Positions 2,896-26,500 of a DNA stretch of 64,000 nucleotides are shown here, piece by piece; the stretch's first letter is position 1; each line of letters begins with the position of its first letter. The stretch is from NCBI GenBank assembly GCA_966212235.1, contig CBIHPP010000002.1, positions 291,499-355,498 of the forward strand. Reading direction: 5' to 3'. The stretch is from an uncultured Niastella sp. Its GTDB lineage: Bacteria > Bacteroidota > Bacteroidia > Chitinophagales > Chitinophagaceae. The notes under the pieces were generated by a model. That model saw only the letters and a list, made by a program, of their open reading frames with translations, did no database searches and was not told the origin of the DNA. Both the position numbers and the translations under genes were made by a program.

Positions 2896-3175
2896 GTTTG
2901 TCAAATTGTTTCATTTTCTATTCAATTTGTTTCACTTCCTCGTAGCTACTGCTTTATAAAACACGGTGGGGTTATACTGGCTGATCAATTAACCTGGTAT
3001 TTACTTTTATTCGATGGGCGCCAAAATATCATCAGAGCTGTTGATGCTGTTGATCTTATACATCTTTTTTGCCGATTAAACATTCATTGGAACCCTGCTT
3101 ATTATATGGCTCTATCCTCCCTTTTCTTCCCGGATTTCAGAAAAAAATATATGAAAAGGCTATTTTTTTAATTTT

Positions 3176-3208
3176 GCAAAATCGTTTTAGAAGTGTAACA
3201 TTGTTACA
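3176..3208. promoter_or_regulatory. Candidate operator(s) upstream of GH92: AAAATCGTTTT (LacI-like, CG centre) and palindrome TGTAACA-T-TGTTACA (3194-3208)
   Basis: Dyad symmetry seen directly; assignment to the LacI gene downstream is inference. Confidence 0.35.
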
Positions 3209-3255
3209 GATTTACGATTGCTGACACTCTTGGGTACATTAAACTAACTGATTAC

Positions 3256-5547
3256 ATGCGAGCAATAATTTACCTGGCAATACCTTTTTGTTGTGTTTTT
3301 TCTCAGGCACAAATAGTTCAAAAAGCAGTGGATCCAGTAGATTTTGTAAACCCCTTAATGGGAACCGATTCAAAGCCCGGACTTTCTAACGGAAATACTT
3401 ATCCTGCCATAGCACTTCCCTGGGGAATGAATTATTGGGTACCACAAACCAACACCATGGGTAGCGGCTGGACGTATCAATACAATGCCGATAAGATCAG
3501 GGGATTTAAACAAACCCATCAACCTTCACCCTGGATAAATGATTACGGGCAATTCAGTATAATGCCTGTTACCAGGAAAATGCAATTTGACCAGGATTCG
3601 CGCGCAAGCTGGTTCTCCCATAAAACAGAAAGATCTACTCCCTATTATTATAGTGTTTACCTGGCAGATCCTGATGTAACTGCAGAAATTACCCCCACCG
3701 AGAGGGCCGCCCAGTTACGGTTTACATTTCCTGCATGTGACAGTTCCTTTATAGTGGTTGATGCTTTTGACAAAGGCTCATATATAAAGATCATTCCTGC
3801 CGAAAGAAAAATTATAGGCTATACATCAGCCAATAGCGGGGGAGTACCTTCCAATTTCAAAAATTACTTTATTATTTCTTTCGATAAAGATTTTTCAATA
3901 GCGCATACCTGGCACGATAAAACACTGGCAAAGGACACCCTTGAATTACAGTCGAATCATACAGGTGCTATCATTGGATTTAAAACACGAAAAGGTGAAC
4001 AGGTGCATATAAAAACAGCCTCTTCGTTTATCAGCTATGAGCAAGCCGAATTAAATGCACAACGTGAGCTTGGAAATGATTCATTTGATAATACCTGTAA
4101 CAAAGGCCGTCAGGTCTGGAATCGCGAATTAGGCAGGTTGCAGGCAGAAGGCGGTACGGAAGAACAATTAAAAACATTTTATTCCTGTTTATACCGGGTG
4201 CTGTTGTTTCCACGAAAGTTTTTTGAATATAACAAGGCTAATGAAGCGATTCATTACAGCCCATACAATGGTCAGGTATTACCTGGTTATATGTTTACCG
4301 ACAATGGCTTTTGGGATACATTCAGGGCCGTGTTTCCGTTTTTTACACTGATGTATCCAACCCTGAACAGCCAGATCATGCAGGGGTTGGCAAACACCTA
4401 TAAGGAAAGCGGATGGTTGCCCGAATGGGCCAGTCCGGGCCATCGTGATTGCATGGTAGGCTCTAACTCGGCTTCGTTGATTGCCGATTCTTACATCAAG
4501 GGAGTACGCGGATATGACATCAATACTTTATATGAGGCTGTTTTAAAGAATACAGAGCATGAAGGTCCGCTTTCATCAGTGGGAAGAAAAGGCGTGCAGT
4601 ATTATAATGAATTGGGATATGTTCCTTATGATGTAAAGATCAATGAAAATGCTGCCCGTACTTTGGAATATGCGTATGATGATTTTACAATTGCTCAATT
4701 AGCCAAATCATTAAACCGGCCAAAAGAAGAAATTGATCGCTTTGCCCGCCGTAGCATGAACTATCGTAACCTTTTCGACAGTACAACCCGCCTGATGCGT
4801 GGCAAAAATAAAGACGGTCGTTTTCAATCTCCATTCAATCCATTCAAATGGGGAGATGCTTTTACCGAAGGTAACAGCTGGCATTACACCTGGAGTGTTT
4901 TTCACGATGTACAGGGATTGGCTGGCCTGATGGGTGGGTCGAAAATGTTTGCGAAAATGCTTGATTCGGTATTTGCGCTTCCCCCTGTATTTGATGAAAG
5001 TTATTATGGAGGTGTCATTCATGAAATTCGCGAAATGCAGATCATGAATATGGGGCAATACGCCCATGGTAACCAGCCAATTCAGCACATGATCTATTTA
5101 TACAATTATGCAGGCGAACCATGGAAAACACAATACTGGGTGCGCCAGGTAATGGATAAATTATATCACTCCGCACCGGATGGATATTGTGGCGATGAAG
5201 ACAATGGCCAAACCTCGGCCTGGTATATTTTTTCAGCTATGGGTTTTTACCCGGTTTGTCCAGGTACAACCCAATACGTTTTTGGAACACCGCTGTTCCG
5301 TAAAATGACCGTCACTTTTGAAAACGGACGTAAGCTGATTATACAGGCGCCTGCTTCAGATAAGAACAATTATTATATACATAACATTTCCTTGAACGGA
5401 GTTAAGCATACGAAGAACTGGATCGATCATAGCCAATTACAAAAGGGAGGTACATTGATGTATGATGTAAAAAAAGAGCCCTCCTATACCAGAGGAATTA
5501 CACCGGCCGCATTTCCATTTTCTGTATCTCCGGCATCTGTCCGGTAA
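3256..5547 (+). CDS. GH92 family alpha-mannosidase
   Basis: VNPLMGT, GNTYP..ALPWGM, FWDTFR, EGNSWHY, HGNQP and DEDNGQTSAWY motifs; signal peptide. Confidence 0.93.
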   Translation: MRAIIYLAIPFCCVFSQAQIVQKAVDPVDFVNPLMGTDSKPGLSNGNTYPAIALPWGMNYWVPQTNTMGSGWTYQYNADKIRGFKQTHQPSPWINDYGQFSIMPVTRKMQFDQDSRASWFSHKTERSTPYYYSVYLADPDVTAEITPTERAAQLRFTFPACDSSFIVVDAFDKGSYIKIIPAERKIIGYTSANSGGVPSNFKNYFIISFDKDFSIAHTWHDKTLAKDTLELQSNHTGAIIGFKTRKGEQVHIKTASSFISYEQAELNAQRELGNDSFDNTCNKGRQVWNRELGRLQAEGGTEEQLKTFYSCLYRVLLFPRKFFEYNKANEAIHYSPYNGQVLPGYMFTDNGFWDTFRAVFPFFTLMYPTLNSQIMQGLANTYKESGWLPEWASPGHRDCMVGSNSASLIADSYIKGVRGYDINTLYEAVLKNTEHEGPLSSVGRKGVQYYNELGYVPYDVKINENAARTLEYAYDDFTIAQLAKSLNRPKEEIDRFARRSMNYRNLFDSTTRLMRGKNKDGRFQSPFNPFKWGDAFTEGNSWHYTWSVFHDVQGLAGLMGGSKMFAKMLDSVFALPPVFDESYYGGVIHEIREMQIMNMGQYAHGNQPIQHMIYLYNYAGEPWKTQYWVRQVMDKLYHSAPDGYCGDEDNGQTSAWYIFSAMGFYPVCPGTTQYVFGTPLFRKMTVTFENGRKLIIQAPASDKNNYYIHNISLNGVKHTKNWIDHSQLQKGGTLMYDVKKEPSYTRGITPAAFPFSVSPASVR

Positions 5548-5560
5548 GAATTATAACCAT

Positions 5561-6577
5561 ATGAAGAAGATATCTATAAAGGATATTGCACAAATGGCGG
5601 GCGTTGCATCGTCTACCGTATCATTTGTATTGAACGGCAAGGCACGCAAAATGCGCATTAGCGAAACTGTAGAGAAGCGGGTGTTTGAAGTCGCCCGCAA
5701 TGCAGGTTATTATCCCAATCAGCTTGCCATTAGTTTACGGACCGGTAAATCAAAAACGCTGGGCCTTATTGTTGAAAACATTGGCAACATTTTTTTTGCC
5801 ACTTTAGCAAAAACGATTGAAGAAGAGGCTGAACAGTATGGTTACCGGGTTGTGTATTGCAGCACAGAGAATAATGCATCGAAAGGAAAAGAATTGATCA
5901 ATATGCTTTCACAACGGCAGGTAGATGGATACCTGATCACCCCGGCGCCGCATATGGAAGCGGATATTCAGCAACTGGTACAACTACAACGGCCTGTTGT
6001 TTTAATTGACCGGTATTTACCGAATGTAGATGCCTCTCATGTGTTGGTTAATAATGCAGAAGCAGTAGCGCAGGGGATGTCGCATTTATTTTCACAGGGC
6101 TATCGTGAAATAGGATTTGTTACGGTAGACCTTGATATTATGCAAATGGAGCAACGGCTCGATGGTTATATTGGCGCGCTTTCTAAAGAAGGGATCCGGT
6201 TGAATAAGGATATTATTCTAAAAATCCCATATACACATCAACGGGAAGAAGCTGTTGAGCTCATTGCAGCTCTATTGGAAAACAACCCCCAGTTGGATGC
6301 ATTGTTTTTTGCAACCAATTACCTTGGAATATTAGGCCTGGAAAGCATCAACCGGCTAAAAATGGCAATCCCACAGGATATTGCTGTCATTAGTTTTGAC
6401 GATCACGACATTTTCAGGTTGTATCCTCCCGGTATTACAAGCATTCAACAGCCTGTTGAAGCAATTGCCAAAAAAGCGGTAGGGCTATTAATGGAGCAAT
6501 GCGAAAATTCGGAAATTAAATTTGCAAAGACTGAGGTAGAACTTGCGGCAAAATTGATTGTGAGAGGGTCTACCTAA
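5561..6577 (+). CDS. LacI family transcriptional regulator
   Basis: ISIKDIAQMAGVASSTVSFVLNG HTH; C-terminal sugar-binding domain (IAVISFDD, SIQQP). Confidence 0.95.
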   Translation: MKKISIKDIAQMAGVASSTVSFVLNGKARKMRISETVEKRVFEVARNAGYYPNQLAISLRTGKSKTLGLIVENIGNIFFATLAKTIEEEAEQYGYRVVYCSTENNASKGKELINMLSQRQVDGYLITPAPHMEADIQQLVQLQRPVVLIDRYLPNVDASHVLVNNAEAVAQGMSHLFSQGYREIGFVTVDLDIMQMEQRLDGYIGALSKEGIRLNKDIILKIPYTHQREEAVELIAALLENNPQLDALFFATNYLGILGLESINRLKMAIPQDIAVISFDDHDIFRLYPPGITSIQQPVEAIAKKAVGLLMEQCENSEIKFAKTEVELAAKLIVRGST

Positions 6578-10311: not shown

Positions 10312-10575
10312 ATGAAAAAAATTAAGGTTATATTAAATTCTATTGCCATTACTATTGCTATTGCCGGTGCTTTTGCTACCCGTTTTTGTATGCAAAATGA
10401 CCAAACCCAATATATTCCGGTAAAGGATACTTATACACCAGTTGGTGATTTTGGTACTGACTATAACTGCTTTGATTCTCAAAATGTATGTACGTTCATT
10501 CTTCCAGATTCAGTTGCCCGCCCCAAAGAATTTTTACCATATCGCAAAGGACAGTTTGTGCCAATAAAGAAATAG
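10312..10575 (+). CDS. Small secreted Cys-containing protein (DUF6520-like), paralogue 1
   Basis: Signal peptide ending AGAFA; C-x6-C core; clear similarity to 11819..12079. Confidence 0.8.
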   Translation: MKKIKVILNSIAITIAIAGAFATRFCMQNDQTQYIPVKDTYTPVGDFGTDYNCFDSQNVCTFILPDSVARPKEFLPYRKGQFVPIKK

Positions 10576-11234
10576 TTCTGTTTGCAGCGCAAAAATTTTA
10601 TTTTGAAATAATACATAAAGGCCTAATCGAAAACATGTAGCAAAGCGTACATGAATACATGTATAAATAACCTTTAATCTGAGAGAGGAAAGAGAAAAAT
10701 TAGCTACCATCGTTTTATAGTAAATTTTTCATTAAAAAAGCAGGTCGTCTTAAATGGCCGATTTTTTGTAGTTTGATGGCTGCAAGGCGAGCGTTTTGTC
10801 GCTAAAGTGCATTAGCAGTATATTTTGATGGTAATTCACCCTAAAATTGAATAATAAATGAATGGGATTTTCCCAAAGTTTATTCCCACCATTAAACGAA
10901 CTATAAAAAAATGTAATAAGTATGTTTCGCTAAACCAGATTCACAATTGTGCAATAAATATTTAAACAATTTGTTTTAAGTAAGAATATTTTTTGCATAA
11001 ATTGTAAAGTAGATTTTAGTTTTTTAAATAAGCTAAAAATAACTGATATAAATTTTTGAACATAGTCTTTTAGTATTTAACTTTAAGTTCTACCATCGCC
11101 CTCAATTCTACCAAATCTGCCTTATCCCCCTTAATGCCTTATTCTAATCTACCATCTAACGTATAGCAGGATCAGTGAATTTTGGGATGCTTCCATTCAT
11201 CAATAACTGTTGCCCCTTATAACCCTTTCATATT

Positions 11235-11666
11235 ATGAAAAGAAAGATAATTATTGAAATAATATCTTCCTTATTGATATTGCTTTTTTTGTATGCAAGC
11301 GTTAGCAAATGGCTTGCTTTTAAACTTTTTATTGGTGAAATGAATAACCAGCCCTTTCCAAACTGGATTACCCCATTCCTGGTATGGAGTATTCCATTTA
11401 TTGAAGTATTGATTGCCGTTGGATTGATATTTGAGAAAACCAGAGTACCTGCATTATATGCGTCCTTGTTTCTGATGCTGGCATTTACGGTATATACAGT
11501 GGCTATATTGTTACATGCGTTTAAATATATACCCTGTTCCTGTGGTGGAGTAATCCGAAAGCTCACCTGGCCTCAGCATCTTTTCTTTAATTTATTTTTT
11601 GTAGGGATTTCAATACTGGGCATCATGCTTAAGAAGCGTGTTCCTGTTCATGCTGTAGACATATAA
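11235..11666 (+). CDS. MauE/DoxX family redox-associated membrane protein
   Basis: Four hydrophobic helices; LFLYASVSK, IPFIEVLIA and IPCSCGGV motifs. Confidence 0.88.
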   Translation: MKRKIIIEIISSLLILLFLYASVSKWLAFKLFIGEMNNQPFPNWITPFLVWSIPFIEVLIAVGLIFEKTRVPALYASLFLMLAFTVYTVAILLHAFKYIPCSCGGVIRKLTWPQHLFFNLFFVGISILGIMLKKRVPVHAVDI

Positions 11667-11818
11667 AATGGCACAGATCAAATACGAATAACTTTTTCCC
11701 GTTTTAGCTGCGTCACTTATTCCGGAGTAAGTGTACACCTATGTAACGGGTAAGGGTAAGCCGAAAACCTGAATAATAGAGTAGGCACAACACGTCAACC
11801 ATTAATGTAAGGACAAGT

Positions 11819-12079
11819 ATGAACAAAGTTAAACTGGCTTTTATTGCTATAGCAATTCTAACTGCGGTTGGTGGCGCTTTTGCTACCAATTCCTGTGTTC
11901 AATGTGAACACTCGACTCAATATTATTATAATGGAATTGGTTATGTTGAAGTTGGTGAGTATGGAGCGGATTTTGATTGTTTTGTTACCGGCGGTACCTG
12001 CACCTATTACAAACCTGATCCTATTGGGCAACCCAATGTATATGCTCCCTGTCATCTAGGGGCGTATGTGCCGTTGTAA
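11819..12079 (+). CDS. Small secreted Cys-rich protein (DUF6520-like), paralogue 2
   Basis: Signal peptide ending GGAFA; five Cys; TQY..VG..G.D..C-x6-CT..PD pattern shared with paralogue 1. Confidence 0.8.
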   Translation: MNKVKLAFIAIAILTAVGGAFATNSCVQCEHSTQYYYNGIGYVEVGEYGADFDCFVTGGTCTYYKPDPIGQPNVYAPCHLGAYVPL

Positions 12080-12169
12080 TCGTACTAAAGCTCTGTTTAA
12101 TTGATTAAACAAATGTTATTGCATTTGTATTCCCAATCAATTATAAAAAGTAAAAAAACATTCCTATAG

Positions 12170-12199
12170 GCCGGTCATTTATTTAATGGCCGGCTTTTT
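12170..12199 (+). terminator. Intrinsic terminator between the convergent DUF6520-like and SusD genes
   Basis: GCCGGTCATT-tattt-AATGGCCGGC followed by T5. Confidence 0.75.
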
Positions 12200-13562
12200 A
12201 TTTAGGTCTTTCGTTTTGTTTATACTGTCCCATTACAACTGCATCCGGTGGAATTGGTAAGGCATAAAGTGGACTATTAACCGGTAATTCAAAATCCTGG
12301 TTGTTGAAGCTCCGTTTTGGCTTTATATTGGCATTTTCCAGGTTCAGGCGACGAATATCCGTCCACCGAATGCCCCGGCAGGGCATTTCCTTACGTCTTT
12401 CAATCAGTATTGTATTTAATGCCTGTTCCTGTGTAGATGCAGTAAATGGAACAAAGGTCCCTGTTTTCCACCTTTGTATCAGCAAGGTATTCAGGTCCTG
12501 CATAGCGTCATTTAAATTGCCGGCCCGCGCCCGGCATTCTGCCCGTATCAAATGGGTTTCATCGGTTGCCAGTCCGGTAAAAGCCTGTATCAGGCCGGTA
12601 TAACTTCCTTTAAAATTAATTCTACCCGGGTTTACCAAAAAGAATAGGGTACGCCGCAGATCGTTCATTGCATAAGAGTTATATAATGTGGAATCAACGG
12701 CTCCATAACCTAATACGCCTTTAAGCACATTGGTTTCAACAAACTTGCTTTGGTACATGGTTTCTACATTCGTCTTGTCAAAGGGTCTAGGTAAACTCGC
12801 ATCTCTCGTATTATAATCTATCAGTGCTCTATACAGTTGTAAACTGCTGTCTGCATAGGCTCCTGCTTTATCATACTGGCGCATGCTTAAATATACCCTG
12901 GCCAGCTGGGCAAAGGCAGCCGGTTTATTGGGGCGGGTTCTATAACCGGTTATAGAGTCTGCTAAAAGTGTTTTTGCTTCTTGCAAGTCGATTATAATTT
13001 GCGTATAGGTTTGCTCAAGCGTTGAACGCTTTATTGATTCATCTACATTAGGTGTTAATTTTAACGGAATACCCAGGTCTTCATTCGCCGTGGAGGCATT
13101 ATAAGGTAGAGCAAATACCTGGGCCAGGTTGTAAAAAGCGTAGGCCCTTGTAAACAAGGCAGATCCCTTTATGTTATTCCATTGTTGCCAGTTATCTTGT
13201 GTAATTGTCACTTTTTTCAGCTCATCCAGCACCACATTGGCATACAATACCTGTTGATAAGGAGTATTCCAGTCTGAAACATTACCTTCTCCTTTAAAAA
13301 TATCAGAAGCCCATATGTATGCATTTTGTTCTTTTGTGCCGAGATTTTGCCATAAAGATTGGAGAAGATGATAATTATCCGCAGATAATTCGCCCAATAC
13401 AGGGGTTAAATTTAGAGCAGCATCATTGTCGAGCAACGCCTGAAAATCTTCCAGGGTCGTTGGCACAAACAGGTCCGACTTGGGTCTTTCATCCAGAAAT
13501 TCCTTTTTGCTACAGCTTAAAATACTAAAAAGAAATACAGATATGTACAAGCATACTTTCAT
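12198..13562 (-). CDS. RagB/SusD family lipoprotein
   Basis: Lipobox ILSC; RPNKPAAFAQLARVYL and ERRKE...RWTDIRRLN motifs; follows SusC. Confidence 0.93.
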   Translation of the reverse strand: MKVCLYISVFLFSILSCSKKEFLDERPKSDLFVPTTLEDFQALLDNDAALNLTPVLGELSADNYHLLQSLWQNLGTKEQNAYIWASDIFKGEGNVSDWNTPYQQVLYANVVLDELKKVTITQDNWQQWNNIKGSALFTRAYAFYNLAQVFALPYNASTANEDLGIPLKLTPNVDESIKRSTLEQTYTQIIIDLQEAKTLLADSITGYRTRPNKPAAFAQLARVYLSMRQYDKAGAYADSSLQLYRALIDYNTRDASLPRPFDKTNVETMYQSKFVETNVLKGVLGYGAVDSTLYNSYAMNDLRRTLFFLVNPGRINFKGSYTGLIQAFTGLATDETHLIRAECRARAGNLNDAMQDLNTLLIQRWKTGTFVPFTASTQEQALNTILIERRKEMPCRGIRWTDIRRLNLENANIKPKRSFNNQDFELPVNSPLYALPIPPDAVVMGQYKQNERPK

Positions 13563-13579
13563 TAGAAAAGGTTTTCTGC

Positions 13580-16500
13580 TTAAAAATCAATTTTTAACCC
13601 TACTGCAATCGTTCTGGGATTGGGTGTTCCTGAAATAAAATCTGGATCTATTCCGTTATTATTGGCTTTCCAAAGAATTCCCAGGTTATTAGCATAGATA
13701 TATACCCGGAGCTGGTTCATAGGCAACCATTTTGTATTGTTTTTGTCCATTTGATAACTCAACTGAATATCCTGTAACCTTATGTGATCACCCTTTTCAA
13801 TCAGTACATCTGAGTATTTATAAAAAGTGCTTCGGCTAGCACCGGAGTTATAAATTATGGATGGTACGGATGTATAATTCTCGTCCCCGGGATTTTGCCA
13901 TCTCAATGCATAATCAGAATGCCCTGGTGCCCCGTTACTAAACAGATCAAAATAATTGATAGAATTTCTTCTGAAATAATACCCCATTTTATAGGTAATG
14001 GTAAAGGACAACTCCAGTTGTTTATAGCTGAAATTATTTCTCAGGCTACCAAAATATGTGGGATTCGCAGGGCCTCTATATAATAAGTCAGAAATATCTG
14101 CAGAGTTTGTAATATCGCTATAATTAGTACTTTCTTTTTTATTAAATAAACCTTGCGGATCGCCAGTTTTTGGATCCAGGCCCATCCATTTAAAGCTGAA
14201 AATGGAATAAAGTGGTTTACCTTCTATGGGGCTCAGGAATTGCGGATCGCAATAATACCAGATGGGGCTGCTTTGTTGCAGTTTGTAACTGGTTAATTTA
14301 TCTGTATTATAGCTTAACAGAAAAGTAGTGTGCCATTTAAAACGTTTATTGATATTTTTCGAACGGAGTATAATATCCACTCCTTTTCCCTTCATATCAG
14401 CAGTATTACCACGAAATAAAGAAACGCCGGTAGTAGGGTCCATTGGACTATTGCCGATCAGATCGGTTCCCTTTCGGGTATAATACTCGAGGCTGCCTTC
14501 AATAACACAATTCTTTAAGGCGAAATCAATCCCGAAATTGACCATATGATTTTTTTCCCAGCGCAACGAAGGGTTCGGCGGATTTACGATAGAGGCTGGT
14601 AGTAAATTCCAATTATTTATCGCATCATTACGCACTGTTGTATAGGCTGATACCGTTTTATCAACATTGCCTTTGTATCCATTTGAAACCCGCAACTTCA
14701 GATAAGGCAACCAACCAATATGATAAAAGTTTTCCTGGCTCATATCCCAACTGGCGCCTACAGACCATAAGGGTACCCCTTTCTGGTTCGTGCTTACGCC
14801 AAACAGGTTCGATTCATCCTTGCGAACACTACCAGATAATACATATCGCCTTTGAAAAATGTATTTGGCATTTAGGTAGTAAGATATGTATCGGTCAGTT
14901 TCGTTTCTATTGAGGTTTTTGAAATCTATTTTTCTGGAGATAAAAGGTGCATAATACAGCGGGAAAGCACTGTCGTAGTTGACAATGTTGGTGGTTGGCA
15001 TATCTTTATTGTACCCGTATAAGCGAAGTGTTTCAAGAAAGGTTTTTATTCCCCTTACTTCTGCGCCTGCCATGGCCATGATCTGGTGATGTTTGCTTTG
15101 TTTGTGATTGTACCAACTACGGTCATAATTAATTTGAAATCGTGTATTGTGTGCTTCGTACTTGATGGCGCTCTGATCTAAGATCCCGCCCAATGGAACA
15201 CGCCTCACAACCTGGCCGGAACTAGTATCTGTAAACTGGTTAATATAATTCCGGGTATAATAGGTTTGCTGGCTTTTATAATCTTCCTGTTCAATATATC
15301 CCTTATTGTATTGGTAATAGATAGTAGCGTTTAGCCCTTTTAAGATCGTATATTTTGCATCGGTATTGATCCGGTAATCTGTTGTTTTTGTACTGTTGTC
15401 ACTATACTTAAGTTCGTTATACGGTTTGTAATCCCAATCCAGCACCGCTTTGCCGGCAGTATCTTTATATGGTTGCCTTAAGTCTCGCGATACTGTTAAT
15501 CCGTTTCCCAAGTCATCAACCAGATCGGAATACGGGTATATAATATTTGACGATTCAGTGTTATTGTTTCGTGCTCTTGATTCTGTATAAATAATACCGG
15601 TATTGAGCTCCAGTTTCTTTTTCAACCACGAAAATGAATTATTCGCTGTCAGGGTTAAGCGGTCAAACTGGTTTCTAACCAGGTTATCCAGGTTTTTATC
15701 GTAACCTAAGGATAAGTAATAATTATTATTACTACTGCCGCCGCTGGCGTTTAAGGCATATTGTTGATTAACACTGTTGCGGTAGAAGTATTTCTCCAGA
15801 TCTTTTCTTTTATCCTGGCCTCTTAACTCATTTAACTGTTCTTCGGCTTCAGTAGATGAGATCACTCTTTTCTTTTCCTTGTACATTATTTCCACCGCTG
15901 GTGATAGTACATCCCGCTTGGGGGATGTTTCTTTATTATCATAAAAACCTTGGCTAAATAAGAACCTTTCAACATCGATATAATCTGAAGAGCTCAATAT
16001 CGGTTTATAATACAGATCAGGCTTTTGTCCTACCGTAACATTGCTATTTATCGATAACTTAAGAGGCTGGTTAAACTTGCCTTTTTTAGTAGTTATAACA
16101 ATAACACCATTACCAGAATATGCGCCCCAGATAGAGGCGGCATCCGCATCTTTTAAAACTGTTATGCTTTCTACATCATTGGGGTTAATATTATTGATAT
16201 CGCCTGCGTAGGGAAAATTATCAACTACAATTAACGGGTTGGGGTTGGCATAAATGGTGGTTCGGCCTCTGATGGAGAGGTTCGACTGGTTTGTGGCCGG
16301 ATTTACATTCTTATTAAATATCAACCCACTGGTGATGCCCTCTAACCGGTCGAGGATATTGGTAGAAACACGGCGGTTGACCAGTTCATTATCGATCTTC
16401 ACAAATGAGCCCGGCGATTTATCTTTCGATATCTTCTGGTAACCGGTAGAAACTACCTGAATCTTATTCAGTTCGCTGATATGTTGTTTTAGCTGGATAT

Positions 16501-17032
16501 TTAATTCCGGTTCGCCCTGCCAGCTAGCTTCTTCGGGTTCATAATTGATACTGGTAACAACAATGTTTATATCAATTTCACTAACGTCATTCAGTCTGAA
16601 TTCGCCATTTTCGTTGGTGCTGGTTTGCTGGTTGCTGCCTTTCACCGTAATGGTAGCGCCTGGTACAGGTTCGCCCTGTTCATTAATGATCTTGCCCTTA
16701 ATGTTTGCCTGTTTGGTAGCGGTATTTGTTTGTTTACCTCTGGGGATGATGGTTATAGCCTTGTCTATAATGGTATAGGTGCAGGTCTGATATTTAAAAT
16801 ATTCATCAAGCAGTTCTTCAACAGTTCCATTGGTGATATGAATGCTTACAGGCTTTAATTTGGCTGAGATGGAATTCGAGTTGAATATGGTATAACCCAC
16901 CTGCTTTTCCAATACTTTGCGGATATCGCTAATGGTTGCATTCTTTTTTGAGAATGTGATCTGTGCAAGTGTGGATACACTCAGTAGTATACAAGCAATG
17001 ATTAGAAAAGCAGTTATGTGTTTCATAATCAA
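13580..17032 (-). CDS. SusC/RagA TonB-dependent transporter with N-terminal STN (signalling) extension
   Basis: STN and carboxypeptidase-regulatory-like domains; plug motif INPNDVESITVLKDADAASIWG...NGVIVITTKKG; NPSLRWEK; C-terminal Phe. Confidence 0.95.
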   Translation of the reverse strand: MIMKHITAFLIIACILLSVSTLAQITFSKKNATISDIRKVLEKQVGYTIFNSNSISAKLKPVSIHITNGTVEELLDEYFKYQTCTYTIIDKAITIIPRGKQTNTATKQANIKGKIINEQGEPVPGATITVKGSNQQTSTNENGEFRLNDVSEIDINIVVTSINYEPEEASWQGEPELNIQLKQHISELNKIQVVSTGYQKISKDKSPGSFVKIDNELVNRRVSTNILDRLEGITSGLIFNKNVNPATNQSNLSIRGRTTIYANPNPLIVVDNFPYAGDINNINPNDVESITVLKDADAASIWGAYSGNGVIVITTKKGKFNQPLKLSINSNVTVGQKPDLYYKPILSSSDYIDVERFLFSQGFYDNKETSPKRDVLSPAVEIMYKEKKRVISSTEAEEQLNELRGQDKRKDLEKYFYRNSVNQQYALNASGGSSNNNYYLSLGYDKNLDNLVRNQFDRLTLTANNSFSWLKKKLELNTGIIYTESRARNNNTESSNIIYPYSDLVDDLGNGLTVSRDLRQPYKDTAGKAVLDWDYKPYNELKYSDNSTKTTDYRINTDAKYTILKGLNATIYYQYNKGYIEQEDYKSQQTYYTRNYINQFTDTSSGQVVRRVPLGGILDQSAIKYEAHNTRFQINYDRSWYNHKQSKHHQIMAMAGAEVRGIKTFLETLRLYGYNKDMPTTNIVNYDSAFPLYYAPFISRKIDFKNLNRNETDRYISYYLNAKYIFQRRYVLSGSVRKDESNLFGVSTNQKGVPLWSVGASWDMSQENFYHIGWLPYLKLRVSNGYKGNVDKTVSAYTTVRNDAINNWNLLPASIVNPPNPSLRWEKNHMVNFGIDFALKNCVIEGSLEYYTRKGTDLIGNSPMDPTTGVSLFRGNTADMKGKGVDIILRSKNINKRFKWHTTFLLSYNTDKLTSYKLQQSSPIWYYCDPQFLSPIEGKPLYSIFSFKWMGLDPKTGDPQGLFNKKESTNYSDITNSADISDLLYRGPANPTYFGSLRNNFSYKQLELSFTITYKMGYYFRRNSINYFDLFSNGAPGHSDYALRWQNPGDENYTSVPSIIYNSGASRSTFYKYSDVLIEKGDHIRLQDIQLSYQMDKNNTKWLPMNQLRVYIYANNLGILWKANNNGIDPDFISGTPNPRTIAVGLKIDF

Positions 17033-17230
17033 AACCCCTCCTTGCGAATACTAAGTGACAGTACCCCTTGCTTTGAGACCTTTATTTTGTGTAAAAATAA
17101 AAATAGTCAACCGCATTCCCGCACAATCGGAAAAAAGTTGACTAAATACACCTTTTCGCAATTAAGGCGACCATCTTTAGTATCCGGCTAATAAAATTAC
17201 ACTTTAGCCTTGAAGGTAGGGAGAAATATT

Positions 17231-17294
17231 ACAAAAAAAAATTAAGCCACCGTACTGCAACCATGAGCTTGAAGGCTCATGGTCGCAGGGTAGC
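17231..17294 (-). terminator. Sense-strand terminator between fecR and susC
   Basis: On the minus strand CTGCGACCATGAGC/GCTCATGGTTGCAG stem (one G-U pair) followed by TTAATTTTTTTTT. Confidence 0.65.
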
Positions 17295-17420
17295 TTTTTA
17301 GCTCAACACTGCTCATAATGTACCATGGAAGAACAGTGTTAGATGTGGTTTAATGATTAACGGAAATATTATTACAGCTTTTAGAAGTAGGTATTACTTG
17401 TGCTATTAATTAATTGATAG

Positions 17421-18713
17421 TTATGATGTTACTATAATAGTTCTATCCTTTTCGTTTAATCGCGCCTTTATATTATTGGCATTCAGCAGTTTTATAATGT
17501 TTCCAATGGTAGCGGCACGGGGAAGCTTACCCTCAAAAGAAACATCGGGCTTTTTCCCTTCGTATTTAATATTTACGTCATACCAACGGGATATTTGACG
17601 TAATGTATATTCAATATCAGGACCGCCGACCGGAATAAATCCGCTTGTCCATCCAACTACATCCTCTGCATCAACATTTTGAACCATTATATTTCCTTCT
17701 TTCAGCTTGGCCTGTTCGCCGGGCCGGATAGTTTGGAAATTATTTCCGGATGTCACTTTTACTTTCCCTTCTATTAAGGTCGTTTTAATTGTCCCTTCTT
17801 CCGAATAAGCCATTACGTTAAAATGCGTTCCCAATACTTCCACCTCATTCTTATTCCCGGCCGGGGTGTTTATTTTAACGATAAATGGTGTTTTGGCAAT
17901 TTTTCCTTTACGGCCAGCTACATCTTTACTTGTTGTATTCTGTTCCTGAGGATTTACTTCAAAATAAGCTTCGCCGGTGAGTTCAACAATTCGCTCGTTC
18001 CCGGCGAAGGCTATAGGAAAACGCAATGATGAAGCCGCATTCAACCATACTTTACTTCCGTCAGGTAAAGTAATCTGGTATTCGCCTCCCCTTGGGGTGG
18101 TAACTGTGTTGTATAAATCCTGCCCAATTGAAGAGTTTTTAGCATCCGGCTTCTTGTTATATATTAACCGTCCATCAGTCTTGGTTATCTGTGCCTGACC
18201 CTGATCTGCTACATTTCCGTTCTGCAAATTGGTTAGTACAATTGCTGATCCATTGGCCAGGGTCAATATGGCTTTATTACTACCGGGAACGATCTGGCTC
18301 GTTATTCCGGCCTTGTTACTATCTGTTTTAGCAGTTTTATTTTGAGATGACTGGCTGTAATAATACCAGGTACCAGCAGAAATAAGCAAAATAACAGAGG
18401 CTGCCGCTGCAATTTTGCCAAATGGTATTCTGAACGATTTCTTTTCAGGGTACAGGTCCAGTAATTTGGCTCCTTCCAGTTCGGCTTCATTAATTTTTTG
18501 CAGCGTCTTTTGCCAAATAGCTTCGCTATCAGTGCTTGCATAGATCTTCAATTTTTCCCGCAAAACATCTTTATCGGTGATCTGCTGAAAAAATGAATTA
18601 TTATGCTCAGCTTCCGCTAACCATTCTTTAAGTTCCCCTTCTTCCTCTGGACTTAACCTCTCCTCCAGGAACTTTTCGATCAGACTTGTGATTCTATTTA
18701 CCTTTTCCTGCAT
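17421..18713 (-). CDS. FecR family anti-sigma factor
   Basis: N-terminal EEEGELKEW, a TM helix, TPRGGEYQITLPDGSKVWLNAASSL, VEVLGTHFNV. Confidence 0.95.
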   Translation of the reverse strand: MQEKVNRITSLIEKFLEERLSPEEEGELKEWLAEAEHNNSFFQQITDKDVLREKLKIYASTDSEAIWQKTLQKINEAELEGAKLLDLYPEKKSFRIPFGKIAAAASVILLISAGTWYYYSQSSQNKTAKTDSNKAGITSQIVPGSNKAILTLANGSAIVLTNLQNGNVADQGQAQITKTDGRLIYNKKPDAKNSSIGQDLYNTVTTPRGGEYQITLPDGSKVWLNAASSLRFPIAFAGNERIVELTGEAYFEVNPQEQNTTSKDVAGRKGKIAKTPFIVKINTPAGNKNEVEVLGTHFNVMAYSEEGTIKTTLIEGKVKVTSGNNFQTIRPGEQAKLKEGNIMVQNVDAEDVVGWTSGFIPVGGPDIEYTLRQISRWYDVNIKYEGKKPDVSFEGKLPRAATIGNIIKLLNANNIKARLNEKDRTIIVTS

Positions 18714-18836
18714 AGTTAATGGTATTTAAAACTTGAAAGTCACCTAACTCTCTGAGCCTTTAAAACCTTACTTATATAAAAACAACCAAAGGAGGTTTTT
18801 GACAAAAAAAATTTAAAAAATAAATAAAGGTGTTGG

Positions 18837-19484
18837 TTATTCAGCACATATAGGGGAAACTACTATGTTTTCGATCATCCGACCGTATTTTTGCTTATTT
18901 GCTGTTGAGCCGTTTAAGCAAAAGCTTATAAATACGGCTACAAGTAATCTTTTTTTCAGCAGTTGAAGGGCGCGCCTTTTCTGATTTAATACATTCCGCG
19001 GCGTAATATGTAGTTTTTCGGCTACCTCATCGGTACTGGCATCTTCAAAATAGATCAGTTTAAAAATTGTTTTGCATTTATTGGGCAGGGTTTCGATCAT
19101 GGGATAGATCATTCTTAAAAGCTCGCCCTCTATCATATCGGTAATAACATCCTGATCGTCTTTGTCTCTCTGGAGATACGACAATTCACTTTGTGAGGCT
19201 GTTTTTCTTTGTATATGCCTCAGGTAGTTGAGGCTTGCGTTGCGGGTGGTAACAAATAAAAATGCTTTTATGTGTTCTTCGGTCTGAAAAACATCATGAC
19301 GTTGCCATAGTTTTGTAAAGGATTCAGAAACAATATCTTCTGCCTGTTCTTTGTCCTTTACCAGTTGTATGGCGCAAGTAAAAAGTAGTCTGTTGTAGTT
19401 CTCGAAAATAACCTGAAAGGCCCTACTATTCCCTTGATTAAATGCTGTAAGCCAATCATCCTTTTCCAAAAATTGCTTCTTCAT
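18837..19484 (-). CDS. ECF RNA polymerase sigma-70 factor
   Basis: AEDIVSESFTKLW, KAFLFVTTRNASLNYLR; region 4 LPNKCKTIF...EVAEKLHI. Confidence 0.93.
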   Translation of the reverse strand: MKKQFLEKDDWLTAFNQGNSRAFQVIFENYNRLLFTCAIQLVKDKEQAEDIVSESFTKLWQRHDVFQTEEHIKAFLFVTTRNASLNYLRHIQRKTASQSELSYLQRDKDDQDVITDMIEGELLRMIYPMIETLPNKCKTIFKLIYFEDASTDEVAEKLHITPRNVLNQKRRALQLLKKRLLVAVFISFCLNGSTANKQKYGRMIENIVVSPICAE

Positions 19485-19852
19485 CGGGTTTCAATTTATG
19501 ATCATCTTATTATCGGGAACCTTTAGTTTGTAACATATCTTTATGAAACTCCGGTCCATTAACCGAAAGTTTATAATGATAAGGTTAGTGACTATCAATA
19601 AATTGCTGGTACAGGAATAACGATCCAGTTTCAAATAACGGAGGTTGCTATAATCAGAGTAGTCGTGGAACCAGAAAAGCGCGTTACCTGCCCATCCTTA
19701 AAGACAGCCAACGGCGGGATGCAAGTTTACAAAAATATATTAAAAAATCGCTTAAGTGTTTTTTCTAAGGGCGGATAAGTAATTCACCTGATTTCGCCAG
19801 TGAAAAAAACGGAACTGTTCATTGTCATCAAAAAGTAAAAATTTTAGGGAGG

Positions 19853-22380: not shown

Positions 22381-23454
22381 CTACTGTATCGGACAGGCAC
22401 TTTTACTGTTTATACGTGGTTTACAGGCATTACCCGATTCCTGATCATAAGTACTTTGGTCCCATACAAAACCCAATTCAGAACTACCAGTGGTATAGGA
22501 GTACCGGTTTTGACCCACAGGTGCGTCGTGCGCTATACCAGCCCGCACTTTGTATCCATCGCCGCTATGACCGGCCAGGTTGATGGATAGGGTAACTGTA
22601 AAGGCATCATAATTACGAAAATTGACGCTGCCGCGGTACCATAAACCCAGGCTGATATCATACTGATTTTGGGTGATCTCGGTTCCTACCTGAAACGAAT
22701 TTTGCTTAGCCTGTGAATATACAATACCGGCTATGCTATAGGACCAGGTTTGTTCGGGATTGGTATAAGTATACATGACATTGCCAGACCAGCGAACGGG
22801 TAACTGGCTGCGAAAGGAATCGGCTGTATTGGTGATTGATTCATCGGGCCGGTTTACGTGGTGGGCGCTACCGCCCAGTAATAGTCGATTATTTTCATTC
22901 CAGTTGTAATTGAAGAAAAGCCCGGCTGAAAAATCAGGGTACCATTTACCGCTGTTTACAGCTTTGTCAGCAGAAGATACGCTGCCGGGAATTACACCAT
23001 CCACATCCAGTTGATCAGCAAAAACCAGCTTACTGTAATCAATTCGTCGTTGCACGAAACCAAATTGTAATCCACCACTGGCGAACCAACGGGGCTCATC
23101 CCCATTTTCTGCCGGTGATAAAGTGCCCGAGCAAATGGTATATGCATAGGACCCATAGATGCCGGTCTTTTTCAGGTAGCCTTCGGTAGAATGAGTGCCC
23201 ATTAATCCAAAACCTCCGTTGAGGGAAGGAATGAATTTATCGATCGATACGGCGCTGTATGAAATTTGAGAAGGAATGCTCCACCATTGCCGGCGATAGA
23301 TGCCACTCACACGAAGATCGTAATCACCTGCCCCCGTTGCTGCCGGGTTAAGGTAAATAGGTGATAGAAAGGATTGTGAAAATACCCCGTCCTGCGCATA
23401 CACAGCACTGGTAACCAGAAGGGCCATTAATGCAGTTAGTAGATATTTGAACAT
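22381..23454 (-). CDS. PorP/SprF family T9SS outer-membrane protein
   Basis: FSQSFLSPIYLNPAATG, YRRQW and HHVNRP motifs; start moved to MFKYLL (signal peptide); directly downstream of a CTD-B cargo. Confidence 0.9.
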   Translation of the reverse strand: MFKYLLTALMALLVTSAVYAQDGVFSQSFLSPIYLNPAATGAGDYDLRVSGIYRRQWWSIPSQISYSAVSIDKFIPSLNGGFGLMGTHSTEGYLKKTGIYGSYAYTICSGTLSPAENGDEPRWFASGGLQFGFVQRRIDYSKLVFADQLDVDGVIPGSVSSADKAVNSGKWYPDFSAGLFFNYNWNENNRLLLGGSAHHVNRPDESITNTADSFRSQLPVRWSGNVMYTYTNPEQTWSYSIAGIVYSQAKQNSFQVGTEITQNQYDISLGLWYRGSVNFRNYDAFTVTLSINLAGHSGDGYKVRAGIAHDAPVGQNRYSYTTGSSELGFVWDQSTYDQESGNACKPRINSKSACPIQ

Positions 23455-23536
23455 AATTCTATTTCGGGTTTGTGGTTCTTTATACTCGTGACGCACGCAA
23501 TTCATTGATGCCTCAATACTCTTTCATTCCTCATTT

Positions 23537-26500
23537 TTATTTAACTACCGTAATAAACCCGGCCTTTACATGCTTATCGCTTCCCGGATACTGCATGCCT
23601 TTCCATTCGGTACCGTTTATATACCGGCCTTCTATTTGCCAGCCATAACTGTCCTGTTGCAAAGGTTGTCCGTTGTATCTTCCATCCCAGGGTTCGCTGG
23701 GCGATCCATTGCCATCGAGCCGGCTTGTTTCAAATATCTTTTGTCCCCACGAATTAAAGATGCGCAACCGGTATTGCGACAATCCTTTACCCATGGGCAG
23801 AAACTGCCGTAAAGAGTGGTTGCTGCAACCCGGGCAAATGGCACTGGGCACATATAAATAGCCTGGTATATACAGGATGCGTACACGCACCGTATCATAG
23901 CCACTGCAACCGGTTCCATAATCCTGCACCAGCAACTGCACGCGATAAGAACCCGTATCAGCATATTGATAGGTGATCTTTTGTCCCGAAAGTTGCTGCC
24001 GGGTACGGTCACCCATATCCCATTGATATATTTTATTGGTGTTGGTTGGTATGGAATCCCAAAATGTAAAGGTGTAATCAGGTTGTACCAATACGTTTGA
24101 TGGCGACAACGCAATAGCAGGGCGTGGTAATGGTTGAATGTTCAGGCTGCCCCCTGAAACAGTATCACCGCATCCGGCTTCATTTTCGGCCAGTACCTGA
24201 ATAGTAAATAATGTTGGCACAGTACTAAGGGCCGGTGCACGGAACCGGAAATTAAACGGACTATCCATACCCTCCAGGCCATTATTGATAAACCATTTCA
24301 GGTCTACTTTATCGGTACCGGTATATTTAATGCCGGCCCTGAACGAGATGGTTGTATCATGATTGCAGGTGCTGCTATTAGCCGGCGTGTATTGAACTAC
24401 GGGTGTATTGTGTACTTCAAAAGTATAGGTCGTGCTATCTGCGCAATCCGATGTGGTATGCACTACCAGCTTCACCGAATAAATGCCGGGTTTCTTATAA
24501 ATATGCGCTGCAACCATACCGGTGCCTTTGAATACAAAGGGCGACTGGGTGCTGTCGTAAAATGTCCATTCCGTTTTTATGGCATTTGCTGCGCCCGTTG
24601 CGGTAGTTTGTAAGGTATATGGAATGCAGGTCTTACCCGGGCGTACCGATATTTTCGAAATGATTTTATCTGTTACTACTACCACACGCGAAGCGGTATC
24701 TGTACATACCATACCTGAATTGTTCAGTTTTTTGGCAACCTGGCGAATGGTGTATGTACCTGGCAATAGATAAGTATGTGCGTTTCCCGCCGAAGTAATT
24801 TGCCCGTCACCCCACAGCCACTCATAGGCAGTAGCATTGGTTGCGGTATTGGTTGTAAACACATTGCTACCGGTGCAAATAACAGGATAGCTGATATTGA
24901 ATCCGGCAATGGGCTTACTGTATACGGTGACATTGCGATATATCAATGTATCGGTACAACCGTTTTCCAGTTTGATACTTATTGTGTATTTGCCGCCATT
25001 GACGTAAGTATGGTTTACGATATTTTGAGTATTCGGTGTTGTTGCTAATGGCGATCCATCGCCAAAATTCCAGGTAAGAATGGAAGCGCCGGTACTGCTG
25101 TTGTTAAACGTAACGGCATGCGGAGCACAACCTTCCAGTTGATTTCCGTTTACCGATACATGTGCATCAATGGTGTTTGGCATTACCAGCAGGCTGATGG
25201 TTTGTGTATCGCGCCGGCATTGATTTTCGGCAATCAGCCTGAGGTCGAATGTGCTGATGGTCCCTGTATGATAAATATGAACGAAGGTGTTGTTGCTGGT
25301 AGTTGTATCCCTAAAGCCATCGCCAAAATTCCAGTAATAGGCAAAGTTGTTACCGGCCGATTTATTGGTTATAGTTACATCAAAAGGAGAGCAACCCTTC
25401 GTGGTATCAACTGTAAACCGGGCCTTTGCATCGGCATATACCAGCACGCTGTCACGATGGTACGAAGTATCGCACCCGTTATAGGCTTTCAAGGTAATAT
25501 AATAGGTCGTATCGCGAAAATCAGGACTGTTATTATAAGTAACAACGGAAGGTGACGGCTGGCTACTGGTGATGCCATTTCCAAAATTCCAGAAGAACTG
25601 TATGCCATTTAACTGGCTCGATGTATTGGTGAACGCGACCTTCAATGGACCACAACCTTTTGACATATCTTTTGTAAAGCCGGCCGTAACGCCTGGTACG
25701 GTATGAAAGATGGTCTCCATACTATCGGCTTTACAACCATGGGCGCTGGTGGCAACCAGCTTTACCACCACGGTTTGGGCCTGGCCGGTAATCGGATAGC
25801 TGGGAAATGCACCGTTTGTATTAGACCCAATACTTACTCCGTTGGCATACCAGTTATACATGCCATTGCCTTGGGGGAATGGAATCGTTTTAATTACAGA
25901 ATCCAGATTTACCGGTGCACATTTGGTAGTGCCGGTTGCCGTGAATTGTGCTTTGGCATCGGGATTTACAATTATTTGCACATTGGCTGTATCGGCACAA
26001 CCGTTGGCCAGTAACCCTGCAACATAATATGTAGTTGTTACAGATGGGGTTGCAATTACAGTGTCTGGCGTAATACCAGTCAATGTTGCTGTTGGCCACC
26101 AGGTATATGCAGTGGCGCCATCAGCCGCCAGTTTAATACTGTTTCCAATACAAATAGCAGTGGCCGCGGTGGATATGGTAACTACCGGCCGGCGTTTTAC
26201 GGTGATATATATGGAGTCTTCCGTAGCGCAATTGGCGCCAATAGAGGCTGTTAATTTATAACCATAGGTGGTATCGGCTGCGGTGCCTGGATAATCGAGG
26301 GTTAAAAACGGATTGGCGCTTCCCGCATTATTAAGTCCGGTTGCAGGTGACCATTGATACGTTACACCATTTACCGCTGGTGAACCAATGGCAATGGTTT
26401 CCCTGCTGCAAATAGTGACGTCATTCCCGGCTTTGGCAACAGGTTTATCGATAATGGTGACGGTTGTATTTACCAGGGCACTGGTGTTGCAACTGCTGTC

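Follow-up and report, generated by a model that had tools for sequence, protein, structure and literature searches.

A ButCD-like SusC/SusD transporter facing DUF6520 mini-protein and MauE genes in Niastella: conservation of the pairing and a candidate encoded ligand

Described systems and the Niastella locus

ButCD of B. fragilis (PDB 8YPT/8YPU) imports BfUbb, an intact, secreted ubiquitin homologue of 8.8 kDa, in a TonB-dependent manner; the but locus is free of carbohydrate-active enzymes (CAZymes), contains a zinc metalloprotease, and the native substrate of ButCD is unknown (PMC11467351). Here, we describe a seven-gene locus whose SusC/SusD (SusCD) transporter has ButCD as its nearest solved relative. 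It occupies positions 10312-19484 of a 64,000-nt stretch of DNA (hereafter, the window; G000:C2:291499-355498, i.e., contig C2 of genome G000) from an uncultured Niastella sp. with a genome of 9.77 Mb in total. Three plus-strand genes, encoding the small protein DUF6520_a, MauE and a second small protein, DUF6520_b, converge on a minus-strand unit of SusD, SusC, FecR and extracytoplasmic function (ECF) sigma factor genes, with a stop-to-stop gap of 118 nt (Table 1). The best explanation of these seven genes is that they represent a single compact copy of a two-operon module conserved in Bacteroidota. The initial annotation of the locus already held much of its layout: Pfam and NCBIfam matches place every gene it named where it had put it, the terminator it drew facing the DUF6520 gene is a hairpin with a T-run conserved in eight orthologues, and, as it had stated, no CAZyme is present in the SusCD operon.

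The relationship to ButCD is close for both transporter subunits. ButC (8ypu_C, E 9.4e-78) precedes the next solved SusC (E 3.5e-49) by a wide interval, and ButD (8ypt_A, E 3.5e-26) matches the window SusD over its full length; these matches support the placement of the pair in a clade of SusCDs handling proteins and peptides, with ButCD as the closest solved member. The likeness goes further, as the known cargo of ButCD is a small signal-peptide protein, the mature DUF6520 proteins (~63-64 aa) lie inside the size range of that 8.8 kDa cargo, the window locus is likewise CAZyme-free, and the zinc metalloprotease of the but locus has a parallel in the Met-zincin of a sister locus at the right end of the window. 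No protease neighbour of the kind seen in the but locus is present at the window locus itself; S9, S8 or Met-zincin peptidases are found in sister loci. The differences are equally clear. BfUbb, a ubiquitin-fold toxin whose gene is located elsewhere, exploits the transporter of strains other than its own, whereas here the small-protein genes adjoin the transporter in the same genome. Unlike BfUbb, DUF6520_b has a predicted fold without a counterpart in the PDB: its AF2 model (pLDDT 79.5) is a small beta-sheet fold for which Foldseek returned no PDB match at E <= 1e-3, so the fold gave no functional lead. ButC has neither an N-terminal extension nor an ECF/FecR partner, and the but locus has no MauE. 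RagAB of Porphyromonas gingivalis, a SusCD-type pair carrying peptides and not glycans, also appears among the PDB matches (RagA, E 3.4e-46), but RagA is much less similar to the window SusC than ButC is. Moreover, RagAB takes up heterogeneous peptides derived from host proteins and lacks ECF/FecR as well as an encoded cognate ligand.

A different set of likenesses is offered by signalling transporters. In the Has system (HasA-HasR-HasI/HasS), a small secreted protein of the same locus is both the signalling ligand and the deliverer of the cargo. What Has, FecIRA and PupIRB have in common with the window locus is an ECF sigma factor, an anti-sigma factor of the FecR type and a TonB-dependent transporter whose N-terminus bears a signalling domain; here, however, the transporter is a SusC with a SusD lid, and the ligand is a candidate without known cargo. 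The ECF sigma factor and FecR are encoded directly upstream of SusC, which is the layout of a trans-envelope signalling unit, and susD starts 17 nt after susC. SusC itself is composed of an N-terminal extension of ~85 aa, a CarboxypepD_reg domain, a plug (Plug domain E 6e-12) and a barrel, and carries the TIGR04057 signature (46.8 bits, cut-off 46.2). The extension had been annotated as an STN domain. Against Pfam STN it stays below threshold (13.9 bits vs. 28.4, E 0.05), but when the N-terminal extensions of 11 paralogues are combined into a profile, this matches the PupA signalling domain over its entire length (2a02, E 0.003) and the STN domains of PilQ (E 6e-4), weakly but consistently.

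Bacteroidetocin loci encode a Cys peptide together with a multi-pass membrane protein and a thiol oxidoreductase, which are needed for an active disulfide-bonded peptide (PMC6671954). The window locus similarly pairs a small Cys peptide with a multi-pass membrane protein; the fuller sister loci have a thiol oxidoreductase as well. Bacteroidetocins, however, have a 15-aa double-glycine leader and a C39-peptidase ATP-binding cassette (ABC) exporter, whereas the DUF6520 proteins have a Sec-type signal peptide, and neither an ABC nor a C39 gene, by which a bacteroidetocin or class II bacteriocin locus would be recognised, lies in or beside the cluster. In addition, bacteroidetocins target BamA, and SusCD is not part of their loci.

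It is tempting to suppose from BfUbb and the bacteroidetocins that the mini-proteins are antibacterial toxins that enter competitors via their SusCD orthologue, as BfUbb does via ButCD. The adjacency would then reflect toxin-receptor co-evolution, the producer would carry a non-importing or protective receptor allele, and MauE would do what, in bacteroidetocin loci, the 5-TM protein and the thiol oxidoreductase do, both of them required for activity next to a Cys peptide. We consider such antagonism improbable. The transporter clade does provide the BfUbb/ButCD precedent, short MauE loci number from 2 to 13 per Niastella genome (fewest in the least complete assemblies), the window locus appears to be absent from two complete Niastella genomes (G005 and G006), and each genome holds many divergent peptide/receptor pairs. 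On the other hand, the orthologous locus is intact in nine Niastella genomes with dN/dS of ~0.15 and no sign of an arms race, no immunity gene, GG leader or C39-ABC exporter is found, and it would be surprising if a producer retained an importer of its own toxin under ECF/FecR induction.

The fourth system of interest is mauE/mauD. MauE replaces DsbB in E. coli, and its CXC motif is the active site and is required for activity (bioRxiv 10.64898/2026.03.05.709764). The window MauE belongs to a short type in which PCSCGG (CXC, C101-S-C103), K25 and E57 are invariant among 10 paralogues, and it is predicted to be a DsbB-like disulfide-forming oxidase. As in mauE/mauD, a CXC-bearing MauE stands beside a small Cys-rich exported protein, and in sister loci a thioredoxin-fold lipoprotein replaces MauD; in most of them, this TlpA-like lipoprotein (family F8) follows MauE. 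The window locus differs in having no methylamine dehydrogenase genes, in the lack of relationship between DUF6520 and MauA, and in the link of the module to an outer-membrane importer; furthermore, no thioredoxin-fold partner (MauD- or DsbA-like) accompanies MauE within 10312-19484. Overall, the parts of the locus come from known families, and their combination is identical to none of the four systems likened to it (ButCD/BfUbb, Has, bacteroidetocin and mauE/mauD). Our literature search found no paper linking MauE with SusCD.

Conservation of the SusCD and mini-protein pairing

Since this genome holds ~150 SusC loci, ~60 FecR genes and 14 MauE genes (12 of them short-type), chance adjacency needed testing. 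A convergent SusD of the window's clade lies within 16 kb downstream of 10 of the 12 short MauE genes, whereas random positions reach such a SusD in 2.6% of cases (binomial P 9e-15); with all SusC loci taken as targets, the P value for short-MauE adjacency is ~1e-8. Chance adjacency is thus rejected (P ~1e-14). The MauE paralogues of the genome are only 30-42% identical to one another and are therefore ancient copies and not the product of a recent segmental duplication.

The same arrangement is found beyond this genome (ORFs in other genomes being simple calls). Synteny of all seven genes extends to eight further Niastella genomes or metagenome-assembled genomes; Niastella yeongjuensis DSM 17621 carries a syntenic locus. 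Orthologues within the genus are 84-90% (MauE), 82-87% (ECF), 70-82% (SusC), 64-74% (SusD) and 56-92% (mini-proteins) identical to the window proteins. Short-type MauE occurs in few Bacteroidia genera, and in 12 of 13 short-MauE loci from five other families, SusC/SusD genes are convergent and lie 0.5-6 kb downstream of MauE; such a SusCD occurs in none of 13 control loci (12 centred on the common fused-type MauE and one arbitrary stretch). Outside Niastella, the SusD of the genome collection nearest to that of the window (45% identity) comes from Mucilaginibacter sp. MD40, where SusC-SusD-redoxin genes face a peptide-MauE pair. In 13 of these 14 loci (the 13 plus MD40), the gene immediately after MauE encodes a small protein with a signal peptide and 2-5 Cys. 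When PF20130, the DUF6520 family, was sought in 300 sampled Bacteroidia genomes, 10 matches were obtained outside this genome, one of them spurious, and all nine genuine matches outside Niastella lie in MauE-peptide loci facing SusCD. Hence, the adjacency on which the initial annotation had built is strongly conserved at each level compared: in this genome, in its genus and in several families of Bacteroidia.

The SusD phylogeny, which had been proposed as a check against co-occurrence with the small proteins, agrees with this picture. SusDs facing MauE form two well-supported clades (SH-aLRT 99 each), and the tree requires 6 label changes against 14.3 expected, a value that none of 500 shuffles matched, showing that MauE-facing SusDs cluster. 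The window SusD sits in a supported clade of SusDs facing small secreted proteins, and two "unlinked" members of the other SusD clade likewise face small secreted proteins. Its sister in the tree belongs to a paralogous locus (C8:299039-306346) in which ECF-FecR-SusC-SusD genes face a DUF6520 gene of 84 aa across a 22-bp gap, with no MauE. A second copy of the theme, again with no MauE, is situated at the right end of the window (54655-64000, plus strand) and continues to G000 C2:365136. There, SusD is followed by a fn3 protein with a type IX secretion system (T9SS) tail, a PorV-like protein and a Met-zincin, and the unit faces four tandem secreted proteins of 140-149 aa with DUF805b leaders and an AraC regulator. 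Because the C8 and right-end loci keep the pair without MauE, SusCD plus a small secreted protein is, as judged from gene content, the constant pair. MauE accompanies this pair when the secreted protein carries disulfides, as in most cases. The link with the mini-protein and MauE genes drawn at the outset therefore stands for the small protein, whose pairing with SusCD is constant, and gives way for MauE, which is missing from the C8 and C2:346-365 kb loci.

Fuller copies of the module give an indication of what it may handle. In Niastella, the plus strand of these copies encodes AraC-type helix-turn-helix proteins, a GT2 glycosyltransferase and a large polytopic membrane protein, then MauE with a TlpA-like lipoprotein and a small Cys protein; the minus strand encodes an S9 peptidase, thioredoxin-like or AhpC-DUF3738 proteins, SusD, SusC, FecR and ECF. 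Other genera add an S8 subtilase and TlpA-like proteins. The peptidases and thiol-disulfide oxidoreductases of these sister loci point to a disulfide-containing peptide or protein as the substrate. Such a substrate could also come from outside, if the SusCD imported exogenous disulfide-containing peptides or small proteins as nutrients and MauE and the mini-proteins were helpers and not cargo, at work on the cell surface or inside the periplasm; they might, for example, inhibit proteases, chaperone the substrate or mediate redox reactions. Protease inhibitors often take the form of small secreted proteins with disulfide bonds, sister loci with peptidases, thiol reductases, a T9SS surface protein, PorV and Met-zincin resemble a protein-capture apparatus, and the cluster has no outer-membrane exporter for the mini-proteins. 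ButCD, too, is regarded as a protein-nutrient system (PMC11467351). Nevertheless, we hold foraging to be rather unlikely: the window and C8 loci keep the mini-protein/SusCD pair without any peptidase, SusCD keeps the mini-protein more constantly than any other partner, even where MauE and the enzymes vary, and the strong variation of the mature mini-protein sequences between paralogous loci suits specific recognition better than a generic helper.

The window also contains a glycan-related unit, which raises the question of an ordinary polysaccharide utilisation locus. Genes for a sulfatase, an FGE-type sulfatase-modifying enzyme, a GH92 alpha-mannosidase-family enzyme and a LacI regulator form a separate plus-strand group at 284-6577, ~3.7 kb to the left of DUF6520_a. 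If the SusCD served these genes or some other glycan, the adjacency to the mini-protein and MauE genes would have no functional meaning. ECF-FecR-SusCD units are indeed typical of Bacteroides glycan loci, and the GH92/sulfatase group is syntenic in N. yeongjuensis. However, the group is on the other strand, past three unrelated genes, and has its own LacI regulator. Its synteny is confined to Niastella, and none of the 14 related loci tested from other genera contains its genes; MauE and the mini-protein are present in nearly all of these loci. With chance adjacency excluded (see above) and ButCD, not glycan SusCDs, as the nearest solved relatives, a glycan role for the locus is very hard to credit. 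No CAZyme is co-encoded with susCD within the operon, as a polysaccharide utilisation locus would have it, and none was seen in the SusCD arm of any copy examined. Service of the SusCD by the GH92/sulfatase genes was rejected as a candidate on account of the lack of conservation of these genes outside the genus.

The signalling genes are less constant than the transporter. ECF/FecR are present in all Niastella copies, while a FecR homologue was detected in only three of 16 other-genus loci (L027, L030 and L034), 15 of which have SusCD. In the remaining other-genus loci with neighbours examined, AraC-, LytTR- or Crp-like regulators stand beside MauE. A "signalling loop" would therefore be an add-on in Niastella and a few other lineages, and ECF/FecR, by the same gene counts, are outside the conserved core of the module, in which it departs from the Has, Fec and Pup systems. 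Of the mini-protein-SusCD signalling loop that the initial annotation had proposed, the conserved adjacency and the ButCD-like transporter thus speak for the pairing, and the scarcity of ECF/FecR outside Niastella speaks against signalling as its general part.

The mini-proteins as candidate ligand or cargo

Both mini-proteins begin with hydrophobic n-h-c signal peptides ending in A-F-A. In DUF6520_a, the Sec-type signal peptide MKKIKVILNSIAITIAIAGAFA, followed by T, precedes a mature part of ~64 aa with 3 Cys; in DUF6520_b, the signal peptide MNKVKLAFIAIAILTAVGGAFA, also followed by T, precedes a mature part of ~63 aa with 5 Cys, namely a CxxC near the N-terminus, the invariant C54 and C61, and C78. 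The C-x6-C pair (C54/C61 in the numbering of DUF6520_b) is invariant in the family alignment and is common to both proteins. No lipobox is present ahead of the first Cys, and the possibility that the mini-proteins are lipoproteins was rejected. Although the Pfam score of DUF6520_b is marginal, the protein aligns with DUF6520_a and with 43 close homologues, all of which are named only as hypothetical, uncharacterized or "Secreted protein". The NCBIfam search of the mini-proteins and MauE returned no names, and we found no paper mentioning DUF6520 in a literature search. Median dN/dS values across orthologues, with dS near saturation, are 0.165 for DUF6520_a and 0.154 for DUF6520_b, by which measure the two ORFs are real genes under purifying selection. 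Gene-wide dN/dS, read with the same near-saturation of dS, likewise points to purifying selection on all seven genes, with no arms-race signal. Between paralogous loci, in turn, the mature sequences of the mini-proteins diverge strongly.

Taking these observations together, we put forward, with about even confidence, that the adjacent SusCD has the mini-protein of its own locus as ligand or cargo. This is the most economical reading because of the conserved adjacency, the ButCD-like clade of the transporter and the peptidase and thiol-reductase partners found in sister loci. The proposed cycle would start in the plus-strand, producing arm, where the two DUF6520 mini-proteins would be exported by Sec, as their A-F-A signal peptides suggest, with DUF6520_b possibly subject to additional control through its DUF805b pseudoknot leader. 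In the periplasm, MauE would provide them with one or more disulfides, in line with the function of its family and its invariant CXC, and the mini-protein would then be released from the cell. The minus-strand, receiving arm would consist of the ButCD-like SusC/SusD, recognising the oxidised mini-protein at the surface and importing it with energy from TonB. In Niastella, ligand binding might be relayed from the STN-like extension of SusC to FecR and on to the ECF sigma factor, switching susCD on; an STN-type relay to FecR/ECF is a canonical mechanism of trans-envelope signalling. Where sister loci are fuller, TlpA/thioredoxin-like proteins would reduce the protein after its import, and S9, S8 or Met-zincin peptidases would cut it. 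Such a secrete-and-retrieve cycle might serve as a signal, as a hemophore-like carrier of a scarce nutrient or for recycling.

Several observations weigh against the mini-protein as ligand or cargo. The most serious is that the cluster encodes no outer-membrane export route: the mini-proteins have no T9SS C-terminal domain and no lipobox, no C39-ABC exporter is located nearby, and they may therefore stay periplasmic. Peptidase and thiol reductase genes are both missing from the window locus, as is a thioredoxin-like partner of MauE. Peptide type shows no strict match to SusD subclade. In a co-evolution test of eight orthologous loci (Mantel, partial correlation), all genes correlate through phylogeny, and the phylogeny-controlled partial r for DUF6520_b is 0.07 with SusD and -0.02 with SusC, values that carry no information on the pairing. 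Finally, the layout is convergent and not co-directional and gives no operon-level evidence of co-expression.

A broader proposition, which we advance tentatively and would not yet back, is that Bacteroidota own private "mini-protein channels", each made of a disulfide-locked extracellular protein and a dedicated SusCD, often with ECF/FecR feedback and turnover by a periplasmic reductase and peptidase. If it were true, the channels would be a protein-based counterpart of siderophore/hemophore shuttles or of peptide quorum-sensing, and this Niastella genome would run about a dozen orthogonal channels in parallel. To our knowledge, peptide communication is essentially unknown in Bacteroidota. 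Hundreds of SusCD pairs from soil and gut Bacteroidota have no glycan enzymes or known substrate, and the module supplies a concrete, testable candidate ligand encoded beside the transporter. Should the mini-proteins be cargo, the single experimental case of protein import by SusCD (BfUbb/ButCD) would be extended to a native, self-encoded ligand, DUF6520 and the DUF805b RNA would gain a biological context, and the newly recognised MauE disulfide pathway would have a specialised use; the outcome might be a new route of cell-cell signalling, a nutrient-shuttle strategy or a class of toxins.

Regulatory sequences and neighbouring genes

The coordinates of the genes and of the regulatory features discussed below, together with those of the second copy of the theme at the right end of the window, are collected in Table 1.

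Table 1. Features of the Niastella locus and of the right-end copy (positions within the window)
Feature	Position	Strand	Details
DUF6520_a	10312-10575	+	87 aa; PF20130 41.3 bits, cut-off 25.4
Non-coding stretch upstream of MauE	10930-11234	+	~300 nt, almost invariant among 9 Niastella orthologues
MauE	11235-11666	+	143 aa; PF07291 111 bits, cut-off 27
DUF805b RNA motif (RF02914)	11751-11787	+	42.7 bits, gathering score 35.6, E 1.5e-9
DUF6520_b	11819-12079	+	86 aa; PF20130 26.4 bits, cut-off 25.4
Hairpin terminator	12168-12196		between the convergent units; 12-bp stem, T-run on + strand
SusD	12198-13562	-	454 aa, lipoprotein; SusD-like_3 E 1.4e-38, also SusD_RagB (Pfam)
SusC	13580-17026	-	1148 aa; TIGR04056 507.5 bits, cut-off 368.25
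Inverted repeat TAGTCAAC-N25-GTTGACTA	17104-17144	-	upstream of susC; from orthologue alignment
fecR-susC spacer hairpin and T-run	17255-17286	-	strongly conserved; acts as terminator after fecR
FecR anti-sigma factor	17421-18713	-	430 aa; PF04773 FecR E 1.7e-13, PF16344 FecR_C E 7e-9
ECF sigma factor, Bacteroidetes subfamily	18837-19484	-	215 aa; TIGR02985 141.6 bits, cut-off 126.4
Stretch upstream of ECF gene	19485-19780		~280 nt, nearly invariant across 8-9 Niastella species
Right-end copy, ECF	54655-55251	+
Right-end copy, FecR	55399-56619	+
Right-end copy, ECF	56670-57269	+
Right-end copy, SusC	58185-61772	+
Right-end copy, SusD	61832-63214	+

A spacer of 31 nt separates the DUF805b RNA motif, a hairpin with a candidate pseudoknot, from the start codon of DUF6520_b downstream. 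The genome contains 16 copies. In at least 10 cases, the copy is followed after 25-50 nt by the gene of a small secreted protein whose signal peptide is of the same kind, and six of these genes supply the peptides of MauE/SusCD loci. Other sites in G000 are C11:172435, C13:188185, C3:502674, C18:93197, C22:99409 and C2:362168-364460. Covariation is seen in the hairpin and in one pair of a candidate three-pair loop-tail pseudoknot (GCC:GGC, with the compensatory variants UCC:GGA, CCC:GGG and ACC:GGU), of which the other two pairs are invariant. Of the cells, 96% are paired, and the covariation score is 0.60, whereas shuffles give 0.14 and none of 500 equals it. From its placement and covariation, DUF805b is here the 5' leader of a class of small secreted-protein genes.

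The terminator hairpin between the convergent units ends one base ahead of the SusD stop codon and is kept in eight orthologous loci with compensatory stem changes. The nearly invariant stretches upstream of MauE and of the ECF gene are conserved beyond the level of the adjacent coding sequence. The former is probably a leader or regulatory region, and the two could be long leaders or dense regulatory DNA. Upstream of susC, the site with the inverted repeat may be an ECF-dependent promoter or operator region; within the window, the TAGTCAAC word occurs nowhere else than upstream of susC. No ECF-type promoter shared between susC and the peptide/MauE genes was identified, and a scan for sigma-70 consensus promoters gave 32 sites against 37.5 in shuffles, that is, no excess.

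We would also like to comment on some accessory genes of related loci. Between the AraC genes and MauE, certain fuller loci carry GT2 and a polytopic membrane protein of ~510 aa without a Pfam match; in G000, this insertion is found at C22:95-99 kb, C11:143-151 kb and C3:465-475 kb. The ~510-aa protein is sometimes fused to an FAD/NAD oxidoreductase, and the mini-proteins of the GT2-bearing loci have many Ser and Thr residues. They might be glycosylated in the periplasm. In six loci of other genera (L026, L030, L031, L032, L033 and L058), MauE is fused to a C-terminal domain of ~360 aa without a Pfam match. In L034, this domain stands alone, and a homologue (28% identity, E 7e-30) is encoded at G000 C13:186870-187877, adjoining a MauE/peptide locus.

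Elsewhere in the window, on the minus strand at 22381-28627, a PorP/SprF-family T9SS membrane protein gene adjoins that of a 1696-aa protein with multiple PKD domains. A T9SS cargo with a PorP-like partner is a usual pairing.

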